Shown here one piece after another: positions 2,908-45,894 of a stretch of 64,000 nucleotides of DNA. Origin of the DNA: a virus (lineage: Duplodnaviria > Caudoviricetes); IMG/VR virus record IMGVR_UViG_3300031867_000021, positions 32,001 through 96,000 of that record, one strand, 5' to 3'. Position numbers and translations under genes: made by a program. Under the pieces are notes generated by a model. It made no database searches, had not been told where the DNA came from, and saw only the letters and a list, made by a program, of their open reading frames with translations. Position 1 is the stretch's first letter; every line of letters begins with the position of its first letter.

Positions 2908-3052
2908 TATCTTTTCAGAAAAATAAAAAAATATATTTCCATCGAGCCAGCAAAATACATGGCTTTTCGGCGTTTCTGTTGTCATTTATATCCTATTTAT
3001 TTATATGTACGAAGGCATTTTATAACCTATAGGTTATATTTTCAGGCAAAAT

Positions 3053-3082
3053 AAAAAAACCGCTCCCCGAAACAGGGAGCGG
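3053..3082 (-). terminator. Intrinsic terminator ending the lysis/late operon
   Basis: CCGCTCCC/GGGAGCGG stem followed by a T7 run on the minus strand. Confidence 0.8.
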
Positions 3083-31649: not shown

Positions 31650-33254
31650 TCAGGGGAAATTCTTAATTCTTTCAATGTTTCTGGGCCTTTTTAAACCTGA
31701 CATATTATTATACATAATATTGCCAAGCTCGTCCTTCCGCTTCTGTGCCGTTTCCGGCTTTCTCTGCTCTTCGTACTGAGGATGCTGCACTTCCTTGCCG
31801 ACCAAGCTCTCCGGCGTATGGAACTGAAGCTCGAATCTCGTGCCGGTCGGTGATTCGAATACGCAGTTAACACCACGATAAGCTTTTTTGATGGAATAAC
31901 TGTCCCACGTATTCTTGACTTTTACGGTTTTGTACCCCTTGGCTTCGAGCGCCTTTTGAGTCTTCTCGAAATGCTCCACCAGATTGTCAGTCGTACATGC
32001 CTGCGTGTAACGAACCAGATCGCTCAGATTGTCCGCAGCTTCTTCGTATGTCGGATAAGTTCCATCCGCCCTTCTTTCGGACATTGTTTCAGCGATCTTA
32101 TCCGCCACACGGCAACCGCCATCGCTGCTGTCGGAAGCTTTCTTCAGCCGATATTCAAGTCCGAACATTTCAGTGCCAAGATCATCGGCAATATCACACA
32201 GATCATTTGTGATTTTCGGCTCGTTGGCAAGATCCTTTTTGTATTTTTCAACGGCGTAAGGTTTCAGCTTGGATGAGATATTTCCCAGGAACTTTTTGGT
32301 CAATGCCTTGCTTTCGGCTTCGGTCGGCCGCCCGGCCTGCGGTTTGCTCATGATTCCTTCATATCTCTCATAGATTTCGCGTTCCTCAGAGCCGGCAGGC
32401 CACTGCTTCGCTTTTTCCTTGCACATCACGGACGCTTCACGACACGCACTGGCAACTTTATCAAGATTCTGCTTTGCGGCCTTGCTCAGCTTGCGCGGCG
32501 TCTCGGAACCAGTTCTCTGCGGATCGTAGGCCACTGAAGCCGGTTCCTTCATTGTTTCGGCATTCTTGGTTTTGGTTCCTTTTTCAAGCAGCCACGGGCC
32601 GTCGTGCTGCTCGACAAGCAGGTCACTGCTGATTCCGTTCTGTTTTGCGAACTTTTCGATGATCTTGCTTTCGCTGTACGTCTTTGAATAAGGCATCGTA
32701 ACAGATTCGCGCCCAGGAGCGGATATTGTGCAATACGGCTTTGACCTGCCAGACTTTCCGCGGCTTTCCCAATTGAGCCGGATCTTCGCTTCCTCTACAT
32801 CAAAATTGGAAACATCCGGCTTCGTGCCACCCCATCTGCCATACCAATTTTCTGGAACACCGGTTTTTGTCGGCTTTGAACTTTTTCCGTTTCCCACGAA
32901 AAAAGTGGTGTAATTTCCAAACTCACTCTTGGCCGGTTTCACTGCAGCAGGCTTTGCGGCCGCTTTCGCCGCTCTTCTCGCAGCAGTCTGGGCTTTTCCT
33001 TCGGCCTTGACCTCGCCCATGGTCTTGCCCTTCATGTTGGAGGGTCCTTTGTCGATCTTTCCCTTGGTTCCTCCACCGCCGCCTTCGGAAAAATGAACCT
33101 TGGTTCCGCCCTCCAGCGTCCGCCAGCCGCTGTCCTCGTCATCTTTGGCGATTTTCTGCATGCAGGCATCGGCTTCCATCAGGCTTTCGATTTCCTCAGC
33201 TTTCAGCGAATCCAGGGCTTTCATTTTAGCCACGAGCTTCAGCAGTTTTCCCAT
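31650..33254 (-). CDS. Tagged effector 5: C-terminal RelA/SpoT-type (p)ppApp synthetase-like toxin (Tas1/Apk2-like)
   Basis: EPKIT, GLEYRLK, D.VRYT, KVKNTW, YRGVN, FELQFHTPES, H..YE..R; N-terminal DSGWRTLEGG.KVH tag variant. Confidence 0.85.
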   Translation of the reverse strand: MGKLLKLVAKMKALDSLKAEEIESLMEADACMQKIAKDDEDSGWRTLEGGTKVHFSEGGGGGTKGKIDKGPSNMKGKTMGEVKAEGKAQTAARRAAKAAAKPAAVKPAKSEFGNYTTFFVGNGKSSKPTKTGVPENWYGRWGGTKPDVSNFDVEEAKIRLNWESRGKSGRSKPYCTISAPGRESVTMPYSKTYSESKIIEKFAKQNGISSDLLVEQHDGPWLLEKGTKTKNAETMKEPASVAYDPQRTGSETPRKLSKAAKQNLDKVASACREASVMCKEKAKQWPAGSEEREIYERYEGIMSKPQAGRPTEAESKALTKKFLGNISSKLKPYAVEKYKKDLANEPKITNDLCDIADDLGTEMFGLEYRLKKASDSSDGGCRVADKIAETMSERRADGTYPTYEEAADNLSDLVRYTQACTTDNLVEHFEKTQKALEAKGYKTVKVKNTWDSYSIKKAYRGVNCVFESPTGTRFELQFHTPESLVGKEVQHPQYEEQRKPETAQKRKDELGNIMYNNMSGLKRPRNIERIKNFP

Positions 33255-33278
33255 GATCTCATCTCCTCGTTTTTTCGC

Positions 33279-33311
33279 ATAATAAAAGCCCGGCGCTTTT
33301 CGCGTCAGGCT
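33279..33311 (-). terminator. Repeated terminator-like hairpin (copy 1 of 3)
   Basis: ATAATAAAAGCCCGGCG...CGTCAGGCT. Confidence 0.65.
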
Positions 33312-33417
33312 GTGGAGTTATATATAAATCCCTGATATAATAATCAGGTCGTATTTGACATGGGCTAAAACGCCCGGAGCTGCCTGCTGGAATGACTCAG
33401 CAGGAGGTGATGCACAA

Positions 33418-33495
33418 ATGACGAACTATGAGTTATTCATGGCCATCATTGCTGTTGCAAGCCTCGTCTTGGCCGCTTTTGCGCTAAGACGCTAA
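33418..33495 (+). CDS. Type I toxin-antitoxin small membrane toxin (holin-like toxin), MTNYELFMAIIAVASLVLAAFALRR
   Basis: 25-aa single-TM peptide with basic end; AGGAGGTG RBS sequestered in a CCTGCTG/CAGCAGG hairpin; upstream TGaTATAAT. Confidence 0.8.
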   Translation: MTNYELFMAIIAVASLVLAAFALRR

Positions 33496-33572
33496 CAAAA
33501 AGCACCGGGTAGTAGCAGCTACTCGGTGCCAGGTCTTCCCGGTTACACCATAACCAGCAAGTCTCCATCGCA
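33496..33572 (-). ncRNA. Putative type I antitoxin antisense RNA
   Basis: Driven by a consensus promoter at 33578-33607; ends at GCACCG..CGGTGC hairpin + T run, convergent with the toxin 3' end. Confidence 0.65.
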
Positions 33573-33577
33573 GTGTC

Positions 33578-33607
33578 ATTATACGGCGCCGGGCGGTTCT
33601 GTGTCAA
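33578..33607 (-). promoter_or_regulatory. Promoter TTGACA-N18-TATAAT (antitoxin RNA)
   Basis: Perfect consensus hexamers at 33607-33602 and 33583-33578. Confidence 0.75.
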
Positions 33608-33626
33608 GCAGGGCCACCCTTTCTTA

Positions 33627-36403: not shown

Positions 36404-36619
36404 TTAAGCGTTTTTCTCTATCCAGTCTTTTGCAGCATCTGGAACTTCAACATTTTGGTCTTCAACATAGTCCATATATGGATCAAAACGAAGAAACTGG
36501 TTCGGTGCAACACCGAAGCCACCAAATGTTTTTCCGTTCCCGTAATAATATCTTCCATCTGGCAATGATACAAGCACTACGCCACGGTCGTCTTTGTAGA
36601 GCACCTTTAATCCTTCCAT
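36404..36619 (-). CDS. Candidate immunity protein for effector 3
   Basis: 71 aa, start overlaps the effector stop codon region. Confidence 0.6.
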   Translation of the reverse strand: MEGLKVLYKDDRGVVLVSLPDGRYYYGNGKTFGGFGVAPNQFLRFDPYMDYVEDQNVEVPDAAKDWIEKNA

Positions 36620-38790
36620 CTGATTTCGACCCCCCGTTGCTTTGCTAAACTCTCAATTTGTGCCCTGTCTTGGGAATTCTTGGGAATTTCTAAATATTCG
36701 ATATCAGATGTTTGGATTCCTCCGTGAAACTGCAACTCTACATAATCCGTTGCGGTTTTTCCACTCTGGGCTATTTCGCTAAAAGTCCTTTCTGTGCGCT
36801 CAAGAACCTCTTTTGGTAGGCTTGCTCCAGAAAACGGATTCATTCCAAGAGAGTATATCTTTGGATCCGTCACAAGTGTTGGGACTTGCGAATTTCCAAG
36901 CTGCTTCTGCTGCAGGCTATCCCCAACGGTGAATGTCGTCCGGGTTTTTACATTGTCTTTTTTAAAGACTATTCTACAGTCGCCGTACATCTTGGCGCGT
37001 TCTGCGTGATCAAGAAAACCATATAGCTCATATTGATCATCGCCGATTTCGAGAGCATCCCCGCCATTGAAGAGATCCACGGCCAACGATTTCCGCATTT
37101 GAATATCTTTGTGCCCATTCGATTCTCCGGTTTCAATCTGTGACTTCATTCTCCCATCTTGAAGGATCCCTAAAATGGCATTCGACTTTGTTCTGGCAGA
37201 AAAATCATGCTTATCCAGGGCATCCTTCAGGATTCGCTCATACTCCGGCGTCCGCTTTGAGTATGTATCGATTGCTGCTGCCTGTTCAGGGCTCGTTGAG
37301 GAATATCCTCGTTTCACTTCATCGATATAATTATCATACGATTCTTTGTAAATGGGCATCAGCTCATCGTAAGCCTTCATCGTTGGAGTTTCCCGATAGC
37401 TTGGAGCCGTAACAGCAGTTTCACTGGCGCTTGCACTTTCTGTTCCCGCCGATTCATTTTGGCTTTCAGTCTCAGATTCCAACTTTGGCTGCTCTGCCTG
37501 CGTCTCTTTTTTCCCTTTGGAATTTTCCGGCGTGAAAGTATACTCAAACCCATACTCAGCGGCATGCTGCTTATAAAACTCATGGAACGGCTCGGTTTCC
37601 AGCCTTCGGATCTCGTCTTTCCGCTCCTGCGCAGCCTTTTTAGAAAGCTCATCATAACCAGATTTATCGAAATATGCCTGCAGGATCTCATTTGAGGCTC
37701 CGGCGTCCTTCATCTTGACCCATGTTTGAGCAATTTCTTCAAGCTTTCGGCGAGTTTCGTTCCCCTTCAGGTTTGCATCTGCTTGTTTCATCAGATCCAG
37801 GACTGAAACCTCGGCGGGAACGGCTTTCTCCAAAGCATCCCTCATCCCGAGCCATCCACCGTTCACTTCTCCCCTGCCATACCTCTGATTCCTCAGCGTA
37901 TAAGTCCCTTCAGGCGTGCTGACACGAATTTCAGTCGCTCCGTAGCCGAAATCATCCAGATCGTCATAGGAGAATGTCCCTCCGGCCGGATGATTGTGAA
38001 GCGAAATCGCTCCCGGCAGATGTTCTCGATTGGTTCCAACCGTCATGCCGACAGAATGCTTATCGCCCTTGGCCTGCGCCCTGATTTCACCATCTGGGCC
38101 AACGATGAAAGACTGCTCGTTCTTGAGATTGGCGATCCTCTTTTCAATCTTCCTGAGCGCCTTGTCCTGCTGCGGGGTATTAGTGGGAAAAGGCTTTGCG
38201 TCCTGATGCTCTTCATCCCACAAACCGCGCTTTTTAAGCTCTTCCCGGCAAGCTTCCATCTTGGCCTGCGTCTCCGCCATCGAATCAAGATAGCTCTTTC
38301 TCACGCCAGCATATTCCTGCTTTTTGGTCTCAGGAAAGGTTTCGTATTCCTTCAGAAATTTTTTGGCCTTTTGCAGGTCTTCGTTGTGTCTTCCGAACGC
38401 TCTGCCAACACCCGTATCTCCAAAGCCTTGAACCTTTTGCCGCAATGATTCCACGTTAGCTTTCTGACTTTCGGTCAGCGCCGGAGCCTTCGGCGTTTCC
38501 ACGGTTTTTGGAGCCGCTGCAGCCTGTTTTCTGCCGGCGGCGCTATTTTTGAAGACTGAACCAAGCTTTTCACCGTTGAACTTTCCACCGAACCCGGCTT
38601 TAATCTCTCCGGTCGTGGTTTCCAACTTAAAATGGCGCCCCTCTTCTGAAGTGCGCCATACTTCCTCGTCGGCAGTTGTTTCTTTTTGACTATTGGCATC
38701 AAAGCCAAGCATTTTTAAGGCAAGATGTAGCGATGCGGTTCTGGGGCTTGTCTTTGAATACTCATAAAACAATCGTCCAATGGTTTTCAT
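36607..38790 (-). CDS. Tagged effector 3: central JAB/MPN-like domain + C-terminal DUF3626-like (ART-like) domain
   Basis: E.S.IV..DG...HNHP.GGTFS..DL; R.KSQ.ETG.S.G...YG.L...YG...K..RTTFT.GDSL...YVELQFHG; N-terminal tag. Confidence 0.72.
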   Translation of the reverse strand: MKTIGRLFYEYSKTSPRTASLHLALKMLGFDANSQKETTADEEVWRTSEEGRHFKLETTTGEIKAGFGGKFNGEKLGSVFKNSAAGRKQAAAAPKTVETPKAPALTESQKANVESLRQKVQGFGDTGVGRAFGRHNEDLQKAKKFLKEYETFPETKKQEYAGVRKSYLDSMAETQAKMEACREELKKRGLWDEEHQDAKPFPTNTPQQDKALRKIEKRIANLKNEQSFIVGPDGEIRAQAKGDKHSVGMTVGTNREHLPGAISLHNHPAGGTFSYDDLDDFGYGATEIRVSTPEGTYTLRNQRYGRGEVNGGWLGMRDALEKAVPAEVSVLDLMKQADANLKGNETRRKLEEIAQTWVKMKDAGASNEILQAYFDKSGYDELSKKAAQERKDEIRRLETEPFHEFYKQHAAEYGFEYTFTPENSKGKKETQAEQPKLESETESQNESAGTESASASETAVTAPSYRETPTMKAYDELMPIYKESYDNYIDEVKRGYSSTSPEQAAAIDTYSKRTPEYERILKDALDKHDFSARTKSNAILGILQDGRMKSQIETGESNGHKDIQMRKSLAVDLFNGGDALEIGDDQYELYGFLDHAERAKMYGDCRIVFKKDNVKTRTTFTVGDSLQQKQLGNSQVPTLVTDPKIYSLGMNPFSGASLPKEVLERTERTFSEIAQSGKTATDYVELQFHGGIQTSDIEYLEIPKNSQDRAQIESLAKQRGVEIRWKD

Positions 38791-38815
38791 CGTTATCACC
38801 TCCCCACAAAAACGC

Positions 38816-38844
38816 TTTACGCAATTTTGTCTATGTGCTATACT
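38816..38844 (+). promoter_or_regulatory. Promoter TTTACG-N17-TATACT with extended -10 (TGn)
   Basis: -35 38816-38821, TG 38836-38837, -10 38839-38844; faces the 3' end of effector 2. Confidence 0.7.
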
Positions 38845-38846
38845 TT

Positions 38847-38945
38847 AGGCATCAAGGGGAAACCCTGCAGGCCGTAACAGGCCCCCGACCAAACGGCACG
38901 GTCGAGGGAACGAGTTACGGCTGAAGCTGACGCCATGCCTCTTGC
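38847..38945 (+). ncRNA. Putative ~95-nt structured small RNA convergent with the nuclease effector
   Basis: Nested stems AGGCAT/ATGCCT, GCCGTAAC/GTTACGGC, CGACC/GGTCG and a GGG-GAAA-CCC hairpin; no credible ORF. Confidence 0.55.
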
Positions 38946-38955
38946 CAAGGATGGC

Positions 38956-40530
38956 TCAGCGTGAAAGCTCCGATTGTTTCGGAGCTTTTCTTGCTTTATA
39001 TTCAAGGCATTTATATGCCCCGTCTTTGTCGATTATTAAAACGCTCAAGTCCTGTTTTGAGCGTTTCGTGAGAGCCTTTTCGATTTTATTTTCTGCTTCT
39101 TCGATAGTGGCGCCACACGCACTTATATCAAAAATCAAGCCTCTGCTGTTTGGGGCAATTTGATTTAAGCCACTCCGAATCCTCAAGTCGAACGCATTTT
39201 GTGAATTGCTTTCCGGCGTTTTCAGATCCCAAAGTCCACCGCGCCAGAAATAATCAGGGTTGCTTTCATCTCTCAAAAAGTTTTCAGACAGAACAATCAA
39301 ATTCCCGCCGAATAGCTGATGCAATCTTTTCCCCATTTTTATCTCTGCGGCACTATGTTTTTTATCAACCCTGGTCATAACATAGAATGCGCCGGAACCT
39401 GGTTCTGCTTCCTTCTCGAACTCTTCCGTTTTGTCTCTTATTTGTTTTTCGGCTTTTGTGCCAGATTCTTTTCCCTGAGTATCGTATGTGGTTTCCGTCT
39501 CCCGCATGGTTGCATCAGCCGGCGCAACCTGCCGGCCTATAATCGCGACTGGAATAGTCTCGACCCCGTTCATCATGGCAGCCAGAGCCCTGTGCCGACC
39601 TTCCTGATTTTCTGTCGCATAGTCCAGATAAGGAATCGGGAATTTCTCCCCGTTTTCCATCAGATCGGCGTATTTATTGACCTTATAGGCTTCGGTTCCC
39701 GCAACAGTGTTTTCCAAGGTGCTGTTCGTGAAAATCTCGAAAGCGCATCTTTCCAGATATTCTTTCGGGCTCATCTCGACAACCTTGGCGCTTCCGTTCT
39801 TCAATTTTTCCCGCAGAGCCGGAACATCCGATTCCAGCGTGAAGCCCTCGAAATCTTTCCTTGTCGTTTCCTTAAGCTCCGGGTTGCCCCACTCGGCGAT
39901 TTCATCAGAACGCTTCTGACGCTTCAGCTCATCCATTTTCCCGCCGTACTCTTCGGCCTCCTGCCCGGCCTTCTGAGACTCAGCAAAGCAGTCATCATAT
40001 TCCTTCTTGAGCTGTTTGCCCTTCTCGGTATACCAGCCGAAGAGCCCGGCATATTGCGGCCCCATTGACTTCGCGTCGTCATCCGGGTACTCGATTTCAT
40101 TCTTCAGCTCTCTGCTGATTTCCAGGAACCTCTTTGAGGCAGCGTCTTTCCTCTTCGTGGCATCAGCCCACTTGGTTCTTGCCGCTTCAAAATCCGGGTC
40201 ATTGATGAGGTTCTTCTCTCCCACGACAGAGGAAATCATTTTCGCTGTGCTTTCAGGCCGGATCCTCTTCGGCTTAGCTGCAGCTGGTTTCTTCGCAGAC
40301 TGGCCGCCGCTGAAAGCTTCCTTCAGCGTCTCGCCGTTGTGCTTCCCTCCAAAACCAGCCTTGATCTCACCGGTACCAGATTCGAGCTTTATATGATGGC
40401 CTTCCTCGGTTGTTCTCCAGACTTCTGCATCATGTCCGAAAAGCTTCACCAGGAACTGAAGGGCCTTGTTCTTCCCTTCCCTATGCGCATAGGCTTTGTA
40501 CAGCTCAGCTCTGATTCCCATGCGCATCAC
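38956..40530 (-). CDS. Tagged effector 2: ParB/Srx-like domain + C-terminal CdiA-type PD-(D/E)xK (tRNase-like) nuclease
   Basis: MSPKEYL...KFP.P.L...QEGRHRALAA...IPV; E...G..L....GG...L.E....PDY.W.G.LWDLKTP...G..QI...GLIFD; N-terminal tag. Confidence 0.75.
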   Translation of the reverse strand: MMRMGIRAELYKAYAHREGKNKALQFLVKLFGHDAEVWRTTEEGHHIKLESGTGEIKAGFGGKHNGETLKEAFSGGQSAKKPAAAKPKRIRPESTAKMISSVVGEKNLINDPDFEAARTKWADATKRKDAASKRFLEISRELKNEIEYPDDDAKSMGPQYAGLFGWYTEKGKQLKKEYDDCFAESQKAGQEAEEYGGKMDELKRQKRSDEIAEWGNPELKETTRKDFEGFTLESDVPALREKLKNGSAKVVEMSPKEYLERCAFEIFTNSTLENTVAGTEAYKVNKYADLMENGEKFPIPYLDYATENQEGRHRALAAMMNGVETIPVAIIGRQVAPADATMRETETTYDTQGKESGTKAEKQIRDKTEEFEKEAEPGSGAFYVMTRVDKKHSAAEIKMGKRLHQLFGGNLIVLSENFLRDESNPDYFWRGGLWDLKTPESNSQNAFDLRIRSGLNQIAPNSRGLIFDISACGATIEEAENKIEKALTKRSKQDLSVLIIDKDGAYKCLEYKARKAPKQSELSR

Positions 40531-40534
40531 CCCT

Positions 40535-41374
40535 TTACGAAATCTTCCCGAACTTCTTTTTAATCTGGTTCTTCGTCCAGTAACCTACTTTTCCGTGATA
40601 ATGCAGCCTGACCGAATCCGGCAGGTTCCTGATATCAACAACCGGCTCCTGATAGCACCGGCAGTTGAAGGTATTTCCCGCGTGATACCGTCCATAAGAA
40701 CTCTGACCCGCACCCGGAAACAGAGCTTCAGGGTTTGGCGGATCATCATAGAACACGAGAATTCCATCCATTGAGCCGTGGGAATGTCTCGTGCGCTCAT
40801 CATGGCAGGAATGCCAGATATAAGCCTTGATTCCAAGGTTCTCGGCTCTGGCCTGCGTGAGTGCCGCATTTGCTTTGCCGCACTCTGTCCGCGCGATGCA
40901 CTTCAGATTTCTGGCAATCTTCTCCGGCATGATCTTCCGAAGCTCTTCCTCAATCTCTTCCGGCCGCCGGCCCTTCTGCGTCTCCCGCTCGGTGTAGGCG
41001 GTTATATAAGCGGCCCATTCCATCGGGACTGTCTTGATGTACTTTGAGTTTTCGGCAATCAGCTCTTCAACCCGCCTGCCGACAGGCCCTTTCATCTCTT
41101 CCATCAGGGCTTTGTACATCTCCCGGCCGTAGGTGTTGCGGAGAACGGCTTCCCGCCAGGAATGAACAGACTCATCTCTCTCCCGCTTGACCATGTTTCC
41201 GACAACCTCATCCACCCGCTGCCCAAGGGTCAGCCGATGAACCCACTCTTTCATCTTCTGGGTAACGTTGCCTGAATTGATGGCCCCGGATCTTGTCTGC
41301 TGCGAGATCCCGGAAAAGATTTTGCACAGGTTCTTCCAGAATGATCGTTCCGTCGAACGTTTCACGGCAATCAT
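40535..41374 (-). CDS. MuF / SPP1 gp7-type head morphogenesis protein (short form, no toxin extension)
   Basis: IARTE..KA, YIW....DERTR.SH, HAG..FNCRC..EP. Confidence 0.9.
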   Translation of the reverse strand: MIAVKRSTERSFWKNLCKIFSGISQQTRSGAINSGNVTQKMKEWVHRLTLGQRVDEVVGNMVKRERDESVHSWREAVLRNTYGREMYKALMEEMKGPVGRRVEELIAENSKYIKTVPMEWAAYITAYTERETQKGRRPEEIEEELRKIMPEKIARNLKCIARTECGKANAALTQARAENLGIKAYIWHSCHDERTRHSHGSMDGILVFYDDPPNPEALFPGAGQSSYGRYHAGNTFNCRCYQEPVVDIRNLPDSVRLHYHGKVGYWTKNQIKKKFGKIS

Positions 41375-41669
41375 CTTTCATCACCTGCCATCTGAAGGTA
41401 AAATTAAGCGGCTGGCGGCATCGACGGAATGCCGCCATTTAAGCGAATCTATATTCAGGAGGGAAATCCGGAATGAAGAAAAGGAGATTACTTCATGAAA
41501 AAGAAGAGTGAGGGGATTCCGTCTATCGCACCGCTTTGAGATCCGGACAGGCGAACCGGACTCGCGGACGTCCGGCCACCACCCCTTTCGTCCGCTTCCC
41601 CCGCTAACGCATCAGAACCCTCCAGCTGGAGGCCCTTCTGGAGGAAACGGATTGGGGCTGTTTTAAGGT

Positions 41670-41701
41670 ATAAGAAAAGCCCGGCGGCAATCCGTCAGGC
41701 T
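41670..41701 (-). terminator. Repeated terminator-like hairpin (copy 3 of 3)
   Basis: ATAAGAAAAGCCCGGCG...CGTCAGGCT. Confidence 0.65.
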
Positions 41702-41727
41702 TCTCCCTGGAACTCTATTTATACTTT

Positions 41728-41961
41728 TTAAGCGGGTGAGGATTTGCACCTCACATGATCCATTCGTTATTGCTCTATAGTGCCAACTTAAGGTTTGTTT
41801 TGCTCTTCAGCTTGCCGCCCTTGCCTCTTTTAGTTTATAAAACTATACCAGTCTCATTGGTTCTGGAAGGTCTTATCAGTTGGATCACATCACGCAACTC
41901 CATGCAGGGAGCGACCCTTGAATGTCTTTACACTACGTCTACCTGTTCCGCCACCGCTCAA
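41728..41961 (-). ncRNA. tRNA-like RNA with ~180-nt insert between D-arm and T-arm
   Basis: 5' UGAGCGG-UGGCGGAACAGGUAGACG (tRNA-Leu-like D-arm); 3' GUGAGG-UGCAAAU-CCUCAC-CCGCUUA (T-arm + acceptor); internal helix UGAUCCA/UGGAUCA. Confidence 0.6.
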
Positions 41962-41977
41962 TAAAGTATTATTGAAT

Positions 41978-42172
41978 TTAAAGAAGCATGTCCACCGATG
42001 AACATGCTTTTTCGACCGGGTCAAATAATTCTCCCCGGCTCTGGCATAGCTTTTCAACCCTGCACAGGTCTTCGTAGCCGCTTCGGCCTATTGCAAGATC
42101 GAACTCCCTGCGGAGTTCTTCCAAACTCATATTGCGCCCGCAGCCGAATTCATCCTGATACTTATGAACCAC
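41978..42172 (-). CDS. Small hypothetical protein
   Basis: 64-aa ORF, weak support. Confidence 0.4.
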   Translation of the reverse strand: MVHKYQDEFGCGRNMSLEELRREFDLAIGRSGYEDLCRVEKLCQSRGELFDPVEKACSSVDMLL

Positions 42173-42483: not shown

Positions 42484-45400
42484 TTACACCTCCATGCTGT
42501 CGTCCCGAATCTTTTTCGCCTTGGAATAATCTTCCTCAGGTTTGTGAGAAGCCACATATTCATCACAGTTCTTTCCGTGCGCTTTCCATATTTCTTCCCT
42601 GCTGCGCCCGGTATACTTGAAGAATACAACCGGCTCTTTCTGGTCTCTGGTTCTGTCCCAATCCGGCGGCCTTATCCCTTCGATATCAGCAAACTCGCAA
42701 TAGCTTGTCGGCTCGAATCCGTTCTTTGTGTAAAACTCGTACAAACCGCCAAACGCATCAAGTTTATTTCCGCCCTTCATTCTTGCGAACTCAAGGAGCT
42801 GACTTCCTGTGACTCCACGATCTCCGGGATGTTTGCACACGCTCACGATATCGCCATCGTGAACCGCAACAGCAGAACCGCCCTTTGTCGTGAAGCACTG
42901 CATTTTCGCATAATCCTCCACGGAATAGGTTCCATCCACACGCCAGGATTTATCTGGCTGCACGTCCTGCACCGCTTTCTTTGCCGCATGGAAAGTATCG
43001 TAAAACTTCTGCGGCTCAGTTTGCTGGAAATTATCCGGGTTCAGCGGGGCTTTCGTTCGTCCGCTCCCGGTTCCACTTCCATTATACGCCGAATTATTCT
43101 GATTTACAATACTTTCGGACGTATTTTCTCCACCCGCATTATACTGCGTTTCCGGCTCTCTGGCAACGGGCGCCATCGGAACGTTTTCGCCCCAGAACAT
43201 GGACTGCTGTCCAGGAACCTCCACCCGTTTCTCGACTCCCGCATACTTTTCAAGCAGATCGTCCGAGAAGTTCGTTTCAATCTCCGCGCCCAGGAGCTTT
43301 GCCTGGAGCTGAATTCTGGCGATTACCGCTTCCGGGTGATCGCTTTCCCATTTTTCTTCCTGAGCGAACGGGACATCACTGTACTCTTCAGTGATGTTTG
43401 CCAGAATGTCCTGTTCTCTCGGAGTCAGACGCTCTGCCCACTGGGCAGGTACTGACTTAAGCCCGAACTCATTCGTAGCTCGAATTTCACCATTTCTGGC
43501 CTGATTCCATTCATCGGAATACTGAACTGAATTGGCCAGATTGTTGAGCGCATTATCCGCTTCGTCCAGATCAACAGCAGGATTCTCAAGAACCTTTTTG
43601 GCATTTTTTCGGGCATTTTCATAATCCCGAAGCTCCGTCTTTATGGTTGCTGCCTTTTTCTCGCTTCCATCTGAATACTTGCTGAAACTTACGGGAATAT
43701 CCGGCATCTTTGCCTTGGGAGGCGTGACCTTCGGCGGAGCGGCGACCTTTGTCCCCTTCGCTCTGGCCTTGGATCCGCTGCCGGATCCCCACTGCTCACC
43801 AAGCTTCTTACCATTGAACTTGCCGCCGAAACCAGCTTTGATTTCGCCGGTTGAAGTTTCCAGCTTGAAGTGCCGGCCTTCCTCGCTCGTCCTCCACGCT
43901 TCAGCATCAATGCTGAACAGATTCTGAACAAACTTGGCCGTCTGCTCCCGGCTGTGGTCGGCAGCGTACTGCTTAATCAGCCTGACCCTCTGGTCCGAAA
44001 AACCGGAATAATCCGGCTTATCCCGACCGATGAGAGACTTGACCTTTTTGCGCACCCAATCAATGACCCCACTGTTGGGCTCTTTGCCCTCTCTGGCCTC
44101 TTCGGGCTTTCGGGCGGGAGTTTGGTCATTCTCCTGCTCTGCCTGCTCTTTGGGCTCATTCTGGGCTTCCGCAGGCACGCTCTTCTGCGTGGCCTTCGGC
44201 TCCTCTTCCGGCTTCTCCGCTGGCTCGGCTTCAGGTTTTGAGACTGGCTTCTGTTCCGGCTTCATTTCCGGTTTTTCCGGCCTTTCCTCCGGCTTTACTT
44301 CCGGCTTTTCCTCCGTGGCTTCAGGCTTCTCTTCCTCTGGCCCTTCTTCAGGCGGCATCATACCGCCCATGGCGGCCATCGGATCCATTCCTCCGCCGGG
44401 ACCACCATCTGGCCCCTCAGGTCCTTCAGGACCGCCCGGCCCCATGCCGCCCATCATGCCGCCCATGGGGTCGCCCATGCCTTCGCCTTGATCAACCTCG
44501 GTTTCGGCGCTTTCAACAATTTCATCCGTAATGGATCCCCATGCGCCGACATCCTTGCCGCTCTTCTGCAGTTCTATCAGAGCGGTCTGCTGCGAGATCA
44601 ACCCGGCAGAGAACGCATTAATCACGGTTCCGGTCACCTGCGAGATAATATTCGCCCTTTCGGAAGGCGTAGTCACCTGCAGAGGCTCGAACACGACATG
44701 CATGCCATCCGGGATCTTCCCCCAAAGACTCATGCACATGACCGGCAGCAGCTTCTCAATCGCCGGGCGCAGGTTGCGCTCCTGCAGCTGAGCCAGCATT
44801 TCATAATAGTTCTTCATGTCCGATTCTCCGGTGGCATTCATGCCCTGCGGAGAACGTCCATACAGCTTGGTCGCCGGAATTTCGGCGGCACCTGCCATAT
44901 CCATCATGAAGGACTCATAGATTTCAGACAGACCGGAGAAGGAATAGGGATGCTGTTCGTACCCGTCCTGCGATCCCATGATCATCATGCCGAAAGAATT
45001 CCGGTAACGGTTTTCTTCCTCAATGCTCTCAATGATCGCCTGCTTCTGCTTCTCCGTGCCCATGCCCATGATTTCACCAAAATCGGCCATTTTAAGCACG
45101 CCGACATTGGCCTGAAACACGAGCTGAGCAATATTCGCGCTGGTCGCATTTCTCTTCTGAAGCTCTTCATAAACGTGCTCCAGCTCAGATGCTCCCCAGT
45201 AGCTTTCCGAAACCTCTTCCATGATCGGAAGCATCCGTCCCCGGAACATCAGGAGCCGGGAATGATGAATCCGCATGGTCTGGTTTGTCTCGTTATTCAG
45301 CCGGACTGTGTAATATTTCGGATATCCGAACTCGATATCGTCCATATCCTCTTCCAGCTCAACAGAAGGATCCAGTCCGCTCGTCCGATCTACGACAATC

Positions 45401-45894
45401 AGGCCCCGGAAGCAACCCGGCACCAGATCGTCATAATCCAGCGGTTCATCCAGCATATCCTCCTGCCCCTTGATCACGATCACGGCAGCAGCACCGCCAT
45501 AAAGCCTCGCCCAGCGCAGCGCATTGGTGATTTCCTGCTTCACGCTGTGCTTGGATTCCAGCTCAGCCAGCTCATCCAGCTTATCCTGATCAAGATTGGA
45601 GGAAATCGTATACCAGGAGCGGGTCATATCTTCACAGGGGGTGTCAATAATCCGCTTCGCGATCCAGTTTTCACGGTAAGCCACGGTCAGCGTCTCGTAA
45701 TCCCGGCTGATATAATTCCGCTCGAAATCGTTCGCCTGACTTAGTAATGAAGCTTCACCGAGATAGGCCAACCTGTTAATGAACCCGTCATTGGCAGACA
45801 GGATTTTCAGAGGCAACGCGCCACGCTTGGTCGCATCCGCGCCCTGATTCTGAATCTGTCTCGCACGAATGTTGCGTCTTTTTTTGCTCGACAT
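42484..45894 (-). CDS. Portal protein (DUF1073-type) fused to linker, tag and C-terminal GNAT-like effector (tagged effector 1)
   Basis: Y..NWIA.RIID.P.EDM.R, WARLYGG, IHHSR, AGAAEIP.TKL.GRSP.GMNATGESD..NYY; then WRTSEEGRHFKLETSTGEIKAGFGGKFNG; then DGDIVSV...GGNKLDAF..L..FY...GF.P. Confidence 0.88.
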   Translation of the reverse strand: MSSKKRRNIRARQIQNQGADATKRGALPLKILSANDGFINRLAYLGEASLLSQANDFERNYISRDYETLTVAYRENWIAKRIIDTPCEDMTRSWYTISSNLDQDKLDELAELESKHSVKQEITNALRWARLYGGAAAVIVIKGQEDMLDEPLDYDDLVPGCFRGLIVVDRTSGLDPSVELEEDMDDIEFGYPKYYTVRLNNETNQTMRIHHSRLLMFRGRMLPIMEEVSESYWGASELEHVYEELQKRNATSANIAQLVFQANVGVLKMADFGEIMGMGTEKQKQAIIESIEEENRYRNSFGMMIMGSQDGYEQHPYSFSGLSEIYESFMMDMAGAAEIPATKLYGRSPQGMNATGESDMKNYYEMLAQLQERNLRPAIEKLLPVMCMSLWGKIPDGMHVVFEPLQVTTPSERANIISQVTGTVINAFSAGLISQQTALIELQKSGKDVGAWGSITDEIVESAETEVDQGEGMGDPMGGMMGGMGPGGPEGPEGPDGGPGGGMDPMAAMGGMMPPEEGPEEEKPEATEEKPEVKPEERPEKPEMKPEQKPVSKPEAEPAEKPEEEPKATQKSVPAEAQNEPKEQAEQENDQTPARKPEEAREGKEPNSGVIDWVRKKVKSLIGRDKPDYSGFSDQRVRLIKQYAADHSREQTAKFVQNLFSIDAEAWRTSEEGRHFKLETSTGEIKAGFGGKFNGKKLGEQWGSGSGSKARAKGTKVAAPPKVTPPKAKMPDIPVSFSKYSDGSEKKAATIKTELRDYENARKNAKKVLENPAVDLDEADNALNNLANSVQYSDEWNQARNGEIRATNEFGLKSVPAQWAERLTPREQDILANITEEYSDVPFAQEEKWESDHPEAVIARIQLQAKLLGAEIETNFSDDLLEKYAGVEKRVEVPGQQSMFWGENVPMAPVAREPETQYNAGGENTSESIVNQNNSAYNGSGTGSGRTKAPLNPDNFQQTEPQKFYDTFHAAKKAVQDVQPDKSWRVDGTYSVEDYAKMQCFTTKGGSAVAVHDGDIVSVCKHPGDRGVTGSQLLEFARMKGGNKLDAFGGLYEFYTKNGFEPTSYCEFADIEGIRPPDWDRTRDQKEPVVFFKYTGRSREEIWKAHGKNCDEYVASHKPEEDYSKAKKIRDDSMEV

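Follow-up and report, generated by a model that had tools for sequence, protein, structure and literature searches.

In the usual account of polymorphic toxins, neutralisation is the task of a cognate immunity protein. Antidotes made of RNA belong to toxin-antitoxin systems of other kinds: type III antitoxins are tandem repeats that precede the toxin on its own strand and are processed by an RNase of the ToxN/AbiQ fold, and most type I toxins are small membrane peptides, RalR/RalA and SymE/SymR being type I pairs in which an RNA antidote faces a nuclease toxin. Here we compare with these systems a locus in a 64,000-nucleotide (nt) stretch of DNA from a virus of the Caudoviricetes (IMG/VR record IMGVR_UViG_3300031867_000021, positions 32,001 to 96,000; hereafter, the window), in which the gene of an effector with a C-terminal CdiA_C nuclease domain (38956..40530, - strand; 524 codons, or 521 counted from the ATG at 40521) is followed, in the slot of an immunity gene, by a gene for a structured small RNA of about 147 nt (38849..38998, + strand), recognised by its fold, homology and covariation. 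On sequence evidence this RNA is an uncatalogued, conserved gene, and we hold it to be very probable that it is a real small RNA gene and a dedicated partner of the nuclease domain.

The locus resembles the type III systems ToxIN, CptIN and TenpIN in that a structured RNA beside a nuclease toxin is the sole candidate antidote, in a phage-related setting, and in the direct inhibition of a protein by RNA that we propose. It differs from them in that the phage RNA is present as a single copy with its own promoter and terminator, and in that the toxin is a PD-(D/E)xK domain carried on virion proteins. With the type I pairs txpA/RatA and bsrG/SR4 of Bacillus prophage regions it has in common that a small RNA is read convergently from a sigma-A promoter of its own and that the 3' ends overlap; it differs in that the toxin is a 524-residue effector with a nuclease domain and not a small hydrophobic peptide. 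No motif of sequence and structure is known to recur in type I antitoxin RNAs from loci with toxins only 27-40% identical, whereas the phage RNA family does share such motifs and, at one locus, lies in sense orientation.

In fold, the best structural match of the phage domain is CdiA-CT of Burkholderia pseudomallei 1026b (PDB 4G6V), with which it has the PD-(D/E)xK core in common. The 1026b toxin cuts tRNA-Ala in the acceptor stem, the related E479 toxin cuts in the T-loop, and in each case an immunity protein neutralises the toxin by filling its active site (PMC9086364). The slot directly downstream of the 1026b toxin encodes the protein CdiI, whereas the phage slot holds an RNA. In genomic setting, the locus is akin to the MuF polymorphic toxins, whose toxin domains reside on MuF or minor-capsid proteins within the packaging and head module. 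Two papers on such toxins (Jamet et al. 2017, PMC5576092; Zhang et al. 2012, PMC3482391) list the 1026b-like domain (cd13442) among the frequent MuF toxin domains and expect a small downstream immunity open reading frame (ORF), which is reported to follow 89% of MuF toxin genes; term searches of their text turned up no RNA partner. Our literature searches likewise found nothing specific on an RNA partner of MuF or CdiA-type toxins, no published exception to protein immunity for polymorphic toxins and no published description of the small RNA itself.

The nuclease domain and the RNA gene beside it

The C-terminal domain of the effector scores 39.7 bits against CdiA_C (PF18451), well over the gathering cut-off of 26.6, with relatives matching a core at about 38980-39440. 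Among 20 relatives the P, the D, both W and the L of the stretch PDY..W..LWDLK are invariant and its Y and K nearly so, and the identification of a CdiA-type PD-(D/E)xK effector, first made in a sequence-only reading of the window, is thus borne out by both the family score and the conserved catalytic motif. An AlphaFold2 model of the domain (predicted local distance difference test score 89.8) gave in Foldseek one clear PDB match, chain 4g6v_A of the 1026b CdiA-CT (E 1.3e-5, probability 1.00, template-modelling score 0.68 by target), at a sequence identity of only ~16%; a profile search of the PDB by sequence returned no relative, and the fold search alone succeeded. The remark that nucleases of this class include tRNases agrees with this result, the closest fold being that of a known tRNase, and because of the resemblance we infer that the phage domain may be a tRNase as well.

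The gap after the nuclease gene measures 156 bp (38800-38955), and the effector is, as had been observed earlier, the sole effector cassette among those examined that lacks a downstream small ORF. The sigma-A-type promoter that had been pointed out on the + strand is indeed found at 38816..38844 (-35 TTTACG, a 17-nt spacer and the extended -10 TGcTATACT). Taken by itself this match is not above chance (1 found, 0.9 expected); its -35 element, spacing and TGnTATAAT box are kept in the homologous loci L003, L048, L240 and L242, in which the spacer sequence differs. From a predicted start at ~38849-38851, the RNA proceeds on the + strand through a 5' GC, a P1 hairpin (38856..38866, GGGG-AAA-CCCU), a GCAG linker, a two-part P2 (38870..38921), a UGAA junction (38922..38925), a P3 hairpin (38926..38960) and an intrinsic terminator (38963..38998). 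The stem sequence of P1 differs in L003, L237, L240, L242 and L047 while its pairing is kept. P2 comprises an outer helix of 8-9 bp (GGCCGUAAC/GUUACGGCU), an inner 9-bp C-rich/G-rich helix formed by 38882-38890 with 38900-38908 and an apical loop with a conserved GGCA; P3 has a conserved 7-nt loop, CUUGCCA (38941-38947), and its 3' base overlaps the toxin stop codon (38956-38958). The terminator, made of an 11-bp stem (38963-38989), a 5-nt loop and a U-rich tail and recognised by these signals, sits opposite the last 12 toxin codons (513-524), and every homolog has an equivalent terminator, with a stem of different sequence.

Every element listed in the sequence-only reading is present where it was placed: GCCGTAAC at 38871-38878 pairs with GTTACGGC at 38914-38921, the GAAA hairpin is present as GGG-GAAA-CCC at 38857-38866, and CGACC (38886-38890) faces GGTCG (38900-38904) across a 9-nt loop, although the full extent of this inner helix is 9 bp (CCCCCGACC/GGTCGAGGG) with one C-A mismatch. 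Two of its statements need amendment. The letters of a proposed outer helix, AGGCAT (38847-38852) with ATGCCT (38935-38940), exist but have no counterpart in the relatives; we discarded the helix, whose 5' arm mostly precedes the likely start of the RNA and whose ATGCCT belongs to P3. Moreover, the RNA does not end at 38956, but runs on through the third hairpin (38926-38960) and the terminator within the toxin ORF.

The + strand between 38850 and 38995 folds at -71.2 kcal/mol (z = -5.9), which none of 200 shuffles equalled; since the complement strand also folds well (z = -5.2), folding energy alone gives no strand assignment. No Rfam 15 family reaches its gathering score in the window, nor in any of 15 homologous loci, and none matches at E<=1 in six loci, the gap itself yielding only chance-level matches. 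ARAGORN found no transfer RNA or transfer-messenger RNA (tmRNA) in the window.

Homologous RNAs and their linkage to the toxin domain

An exhaustive profile search with the C-terminal 185 residues of the effector gave ~500 representative proteins; each of the best 150 has its match at the C-terminus or very close to it. Of the relatives for which genomic context is available, the closest (P0019, P0021, P0023 and P0036) are stand-alone genes directly after MuF, each followed by a gap of 170-195 nt and then by a large head gene. On the antisense strand of each of these gaps lies a homolog of the window RNA with the same -35, 17-nt spacing, extended -10 and helix order, and with a terminator that overlaps the toxin stop. 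Two MuF-fused toxins on viral contigs (L047 and L048) also carry this RNA. All members of what we call the large class (the window, L003, L237, L240, L242, L047, L048 and L005) are antisense to the toxin, located in the gap after it and abutting the stop codon of the nuclease domain; the window and L003, aligned with their promoters, agree in 81% of columns.

A structure alignment of seven distinct sequences (all but L005), folded with RNAalifold, yields as consensus a four-way junction followed by the terminator, with a closing helix P0, the short hairpin P1, the long two-part P2 and the hairpin P3. Compensatory changes on both sides occur in 26 of the 36 pairs, and 87.8% of cells are paired, compared with 27-44% once the 3' partners are displaced by 1-3 columns; none of 500 shuffles attained the observed values. 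The signal is strong in P2, where helix 3 has both-sided changes in 7 of 8 pairs with 91% of cells paired and helix 4 is likewise 91% paired, and in P3, where helix 5 has both-sided changes in 11 of 12 pairs and the GCCA motif of the loop is invariant. The individual minimum-free-energy folds of L237, L240, L047 and L048 lead to the same architecture. Unpaired motifs are also conserved: GCAG or GCAA follows P1, UGAA joins P2 to P3, and the loops of P2 and P3 contain GGCA and GCCA, respectively; the GAA of the junction is invariant in 7/7 aligned RNAs, the base before it being U in six and C in one, and UGAA is present in L005 too. It had been suggested that covarying structure be sought beside homologous nuclease domains, and a four-helix junction is what such a comparison brought out. 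A covariance model built from the seven aligned RNAs (R2) scores 113.5 bits on the window RNA, which is a member of its training set, and recovers the truncated copy in L005, absent from training, at 48.6 bits. Other routes to homologs were unproductive: the phage collection held no blastn match to the gap, the 524-residue protein and a helix pattern sought in viral contigs led to no relatives, a core 15-mer had 41 matches in viral contigs that were all by chance, and nhmmer with a two-sequence profile added no members among 80 toxin loci.

More distant toxins are accompanied by a second, shorter RNA. Scans with an alignment of the toxin domain led to 80 loci on viral contigs, 26 in genomes and 80 in metagenomes. 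The named genome hosts are mostly Clostridia (Lachnospiraceae, Oscillospiraceae, Ruminococcus), along with Veillonellaceae (including Megasphaera), one metagenome-assembled genome (MAG) of Erysipelotrichaceae and one MAG labelled Tenericutes; two cultured strains, Lachnospiraceae bacterium NK3A20 and Megasphaera lornae UPII 199-6, have a locus of this short class. At most of these loci the gap after the toxin is just 75-200 nt long and has, on the antisense strand, a promoter close to the consensus together with one hairpin, 45-60 nt in length, that ends in a U tract. The outer stem of the hairpin is entirely different between loci, whereas an inner 8-bp helix, CCUYYGCY/GGYGGRGG, is nearly invariant and is paired in 26 of 26 distinct sequences. 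One position of this core is U-G in 24 of the 26 RNAs, and further wobbles occur elsewhere; on the toxin-sense strand these would be A-C mismatches, and the strand antisense to the toxin is therefore the functional one. The corresponding covariance model (R1) matches 66 of the 80 viral loci and has 74 matches over 98 genome and metagenome loci, every one of its matches abutting the toxin stop codon.

The apex of P2 in the window (CCCCCGACC with GGUCGAGGG) resembles the core of the short class, the element common to both classes being CCNCCG(A)CC paired with GG(U)CGNGG, and intermediates such as L130 and L122 are short hairpins with a GACC-type core. A common descent of the large and short classes is plausible from this shared motif and from position, not from score. 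One pair of the core, 38885/38905 (alignment column pair 23:41), is non-Watson-Crick or weak throughout when read by hand: the window, L242 and L048 have C-A here, L003 and L237 have U-A, and in the short class the same position is U-G in 24/26 and U-A in 2/26. Because C-A+ and U-G wobbles are isosteric, this regularity hints at a recognition site.

The association of RNA and toxin domain was also measured with a generic detector, applied to 119 distinct loci in which 200 nt or more follow the toxin. An antisense terminator ending within 45 nt of the stop was found at 112 of the 119 toxin stops (94%), but at only 23 of 150 other long-ORF ends of the same loci (15%); with a -10 box required upstream of the terminator, the figures are 107/119 (90%) and 5/150 (3%). 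Scans of five whole genomes with R1 gave four matches, three of which adjoin the toxin domain or a weak C-terminal remnant of it, the fourth sitting at a contig end where its neighbour cannot be judged. The RNA is constant although the carrier of the domain varies among Phage_Mu_F, Phage_min_cap2, a stand-alone gene and the tagged effector of the window. On a quick tree, moreover, RNA class tracks toxin clade, with 13 changes as opposed to 42 when labels are shuffled, an agreement that shows co-inheritance and not interaction.

One locus departs from the common arrangement. At L086 (IMGVR_UViG_3300021256_000438, 2975-3060) an RNA in sense orientation, the sole such case, follows an intact toxin gene; it has its own promoter (TTTACA-17-TGCTATTTT), and a second, sense-strand terminator precedes the next gene. 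An intact toxin beside a sense-oriented RNA suggests that antisense pairing is not obligatory. Two further observations concern the ends of these cassettes. In a Candidatus Copromorpha sp. genome (L235; G003 contig 1, ~738405-738455), a short-class RNA lies by a weak match (E 1.2e-4) to the last ~40 residues of the toxin domain, and may belong to a remnant cassette that retained the RNA. The toxin domains end in Lys-rich tails (RYKKK, KKPR, RKK; in the window at 38959-38995), whose A-rich codons complement the U tract of the RNA terminator in most loci; as L086 retains RKK without overlap, the tail seems to be a feature of the protein that the terminator exploits.

Role of the RNA and competing explanations

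We regard the RNA as more likely than not an antidote to the toxin, by whatever mechanism; that it acts by binding the toxin protein directly is quite possible, short of being probable. The claim that the RNA is a candidate antitoxin holds in so far as a separately promoted, structured RNA occupies the immunity slot and accompanies homologous nucleases, while strict membership of type III, which had been suggested, does not: Tandem Repeats Finder detected no repeats between 38600 and 39200 (0 rows), the RNA gene follows the toxin gene in convergent orientation instead of preceding it on its own strand, and the toxin does not resemble ToxN. According to the mechanism that we propose, a constitutively promoted, terminator-ended RNA of ~147 nt, read convergently to the toxin gene, would take the place of the immunity protein as antidote to the domain, and its four-helix junction would bind the nuclease as an inhibitor or as a substrate decoy. 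The phage is probably temperate, given the two tyrosine recombinase genes in the 107.6-kb virus record that contains the window, and a lysogen or a freshly injected phage genome could in this way neutralise a translation-blocking tRNase though protein synthesis is impaired, because an RNA antidote requires transcription only. To shield a lysogen against toxin that has been injected, an antidote would have to act at the protein level, and to be made at all under a block of translation it would have to be an RNA.

The chief competitor is an antidote that acts on the message and not on the protein. A type I-like cis-antisense RNA would pair with the late mRNA over the 3' end of the toxin gene and the intergenic region, and would cause RNase III cleavage and decay, or suppress leaky toxin expression from the prophage, in the manner of RatA on txpA and SR4 on bsrG. 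Much of the architecture is consistent with such a role: the gene is read convergently from a promoter of its own, the final toxin codons overlap with its terminator in 112/119 loci, all covariance-model matches except L086 are antisense, the RNA is fully complementary to any read-through late transcript, and the same window has a classical-looking type I pair at 33255-33626. Nonetheless we consider this explanation somewhat unlikely. The overlap with coding sequence amounts to merely ~10-40 nt, the sense-oriented RNA of L086 stands beside an intact toxin, and antisense action would give a lysogen no protection from toxin protein injected by a superinfecting phage. The core helix and the unpaired GCAG, GGCA, UGAA and GCCA motifs are conserved while the flanking stems are completely different, and this conservation of motifs and of a complex junction across toxins that are 27-40% identical is not required for antisense pairing; it thus favours direct inhibition or decoy action. 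Several results nevertheless weigh against direct inhibition or against a single RNA family. Convergent orientation and 3' overlap are kept in all loci but one, as cis-antisense action predicts, although the orientation can be explained otherwise, since a sense-strand terminator inside a late operon would be polar and cut off the downstream head genes. In the window RNA, P1, P2 and P3 fit the consensus while P0 is down to two pairs, and R1 does not match the window RNA at E up to 10. In addition, frames of at least 50 codons start within 60 nt of the toxin stop at 27/119 loci, a count to which chance frames and the next large head gene contribute, and a minority of loci may therefore have a protein immunity gene.

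It is also conceivable that the small RNA is real without being an antidote, tuning or processing the late head operon, insulating cassettes or acting in trans on host transcripts, with a toxin that, being produced solely in cells about to lyse, calls for no immunity. The position of the element between head genes, inside an essential late operon, speaks for such a function, as do C-rich stretches such as CCUCC that could pair with Shine-Dalgarno sequences, and the tie between the RNA and toxicity is itself drawn from sequence. We judge it unlikely all the same, inasmuch as the RNA accompanies the toxin domain regardless of carrier or next gene, is absent from the other effector cassettes of the window, which have small ORFs, and occurs genome-wide only beside toxin domains, save for the copy at a contig end. 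Very unlikely, in our view, is a role as cofactor, substrate or co-packaged partner in a ribonucleoprotein, in which the RNA would keep the nuclease folded or inactive until delivery, or would guide it. We know of no guide RNA with this fold, and the strong predicted constitutive promoter fits expression in a lysogen, not solely in late infection; linkage and conserved architecture would be the same as for an antidote, and a related tRNase does form 1:1 complexes with structured RNA (PMC9086364). Finally, it seems hardly credible that immunity comes from a short peptide, whether its frame lies in the gap or opposite the toxin gene. Frames of 33 and 55 codons (- strand) and of 73 and 249 codons (+ strand) do exist, and we rejected all four as coding: the gap holds no credible ORF, its frames lack a usable ribosome-binding site (RBS), including the 33-codon frame that is the only one started by ATG, both + strand frames have no Pfam match, the homologous 75-200 nt gaps that were read have no common frame, and compensatory base changes reveal selection on RNA pairing. 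The 249-codon frame lies within the nuclease gene (39319-40068), and we take it to be a shadow frame because the - strand product has homologs over the same region. An immunity protein encoded elsewhere was considered and dismissed as well, the small ORFs between portal and MuF not being conserved between loci. Among the loci read, no recognisable conserved immunity ORF is present.

We also examined whether the RNA mimics a tRNA, looking in the loops of P2 and P3 for an NGC triplet like an anticodon and for a G-U pair in the register of tRNA-Ala G3-U70, and dropped the idea: helix order and register are unfit and ARAGORN was negative. It is possible, though doubtful, that a single-copy, cloverleaf-like four-helix RNA binding a virion-delivered tRNase represents a new form of polymorphic-toxin immunity. 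If the RNA is an antidote, it would constitute an exception to protein immunity for a domain found in well over a hundred phages of gut and rumen Clostridia, would join polymorphic toxins to RNA-based toxin-antitoxin biology and would explain the missing immunity gene of one of the commonest MuF toxin domains. Two uncatalogued RNA families, in turn, would gain a concrete protein partner.

Neighbouring genes and other features of the window

The nuclease effector belongs to a head module on the - strand that comprises, in order, terminase, portal (42484-45894), MuF (40535-41374), three effectors, a DUF2213 scaffold/protease, a cement protein and the major capsid protein. The effector is built of a shared N-terminal tag of ~90 residues, a middle domain and the C-terminal PD-(D/E)xK nuclease. 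It is followed on the - strand by a DUF3626 effector of 730 residues (36607..38799), with a 71-residue ORF after it, and by a glutamine deamidase-like protein of 806 residues, with an ORF of 102 residues. The RBS of the DUF3626 effector (38803-38812) adjoins the -35 element of the RNA promoter on the opposite strand. Across 36607-40530, the effectors of 524, 730 and 806 residues are 40-53% identical over their first ~90 residues and show no resemblance elsewhere, which fits a common packaging tag on otherwise unrelated toxins.

Two further regions of the window deserve mention. Between MuF and the genes after portal, ~600 nt (41400-41990) are devoid of a long ORF and appear structured; ARAGORN found no tRNA or tmRNA there, and Rfam no match at gathering score. 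Between two effector cassettes, at 33255-33626, the + strand carries a hydrophobic ORF of 25 codons (33419-33496, MTNYELFMAIIAVASLVLAAFALRR) with the RBS GGAGGTG, facing a perfect TTGACA-18-TATAAT promoter on the - strand (33607..33578), and the layout resembles that of a toxin peptide of the classical type I kind faced by its antisense RNA in convergent orientation.

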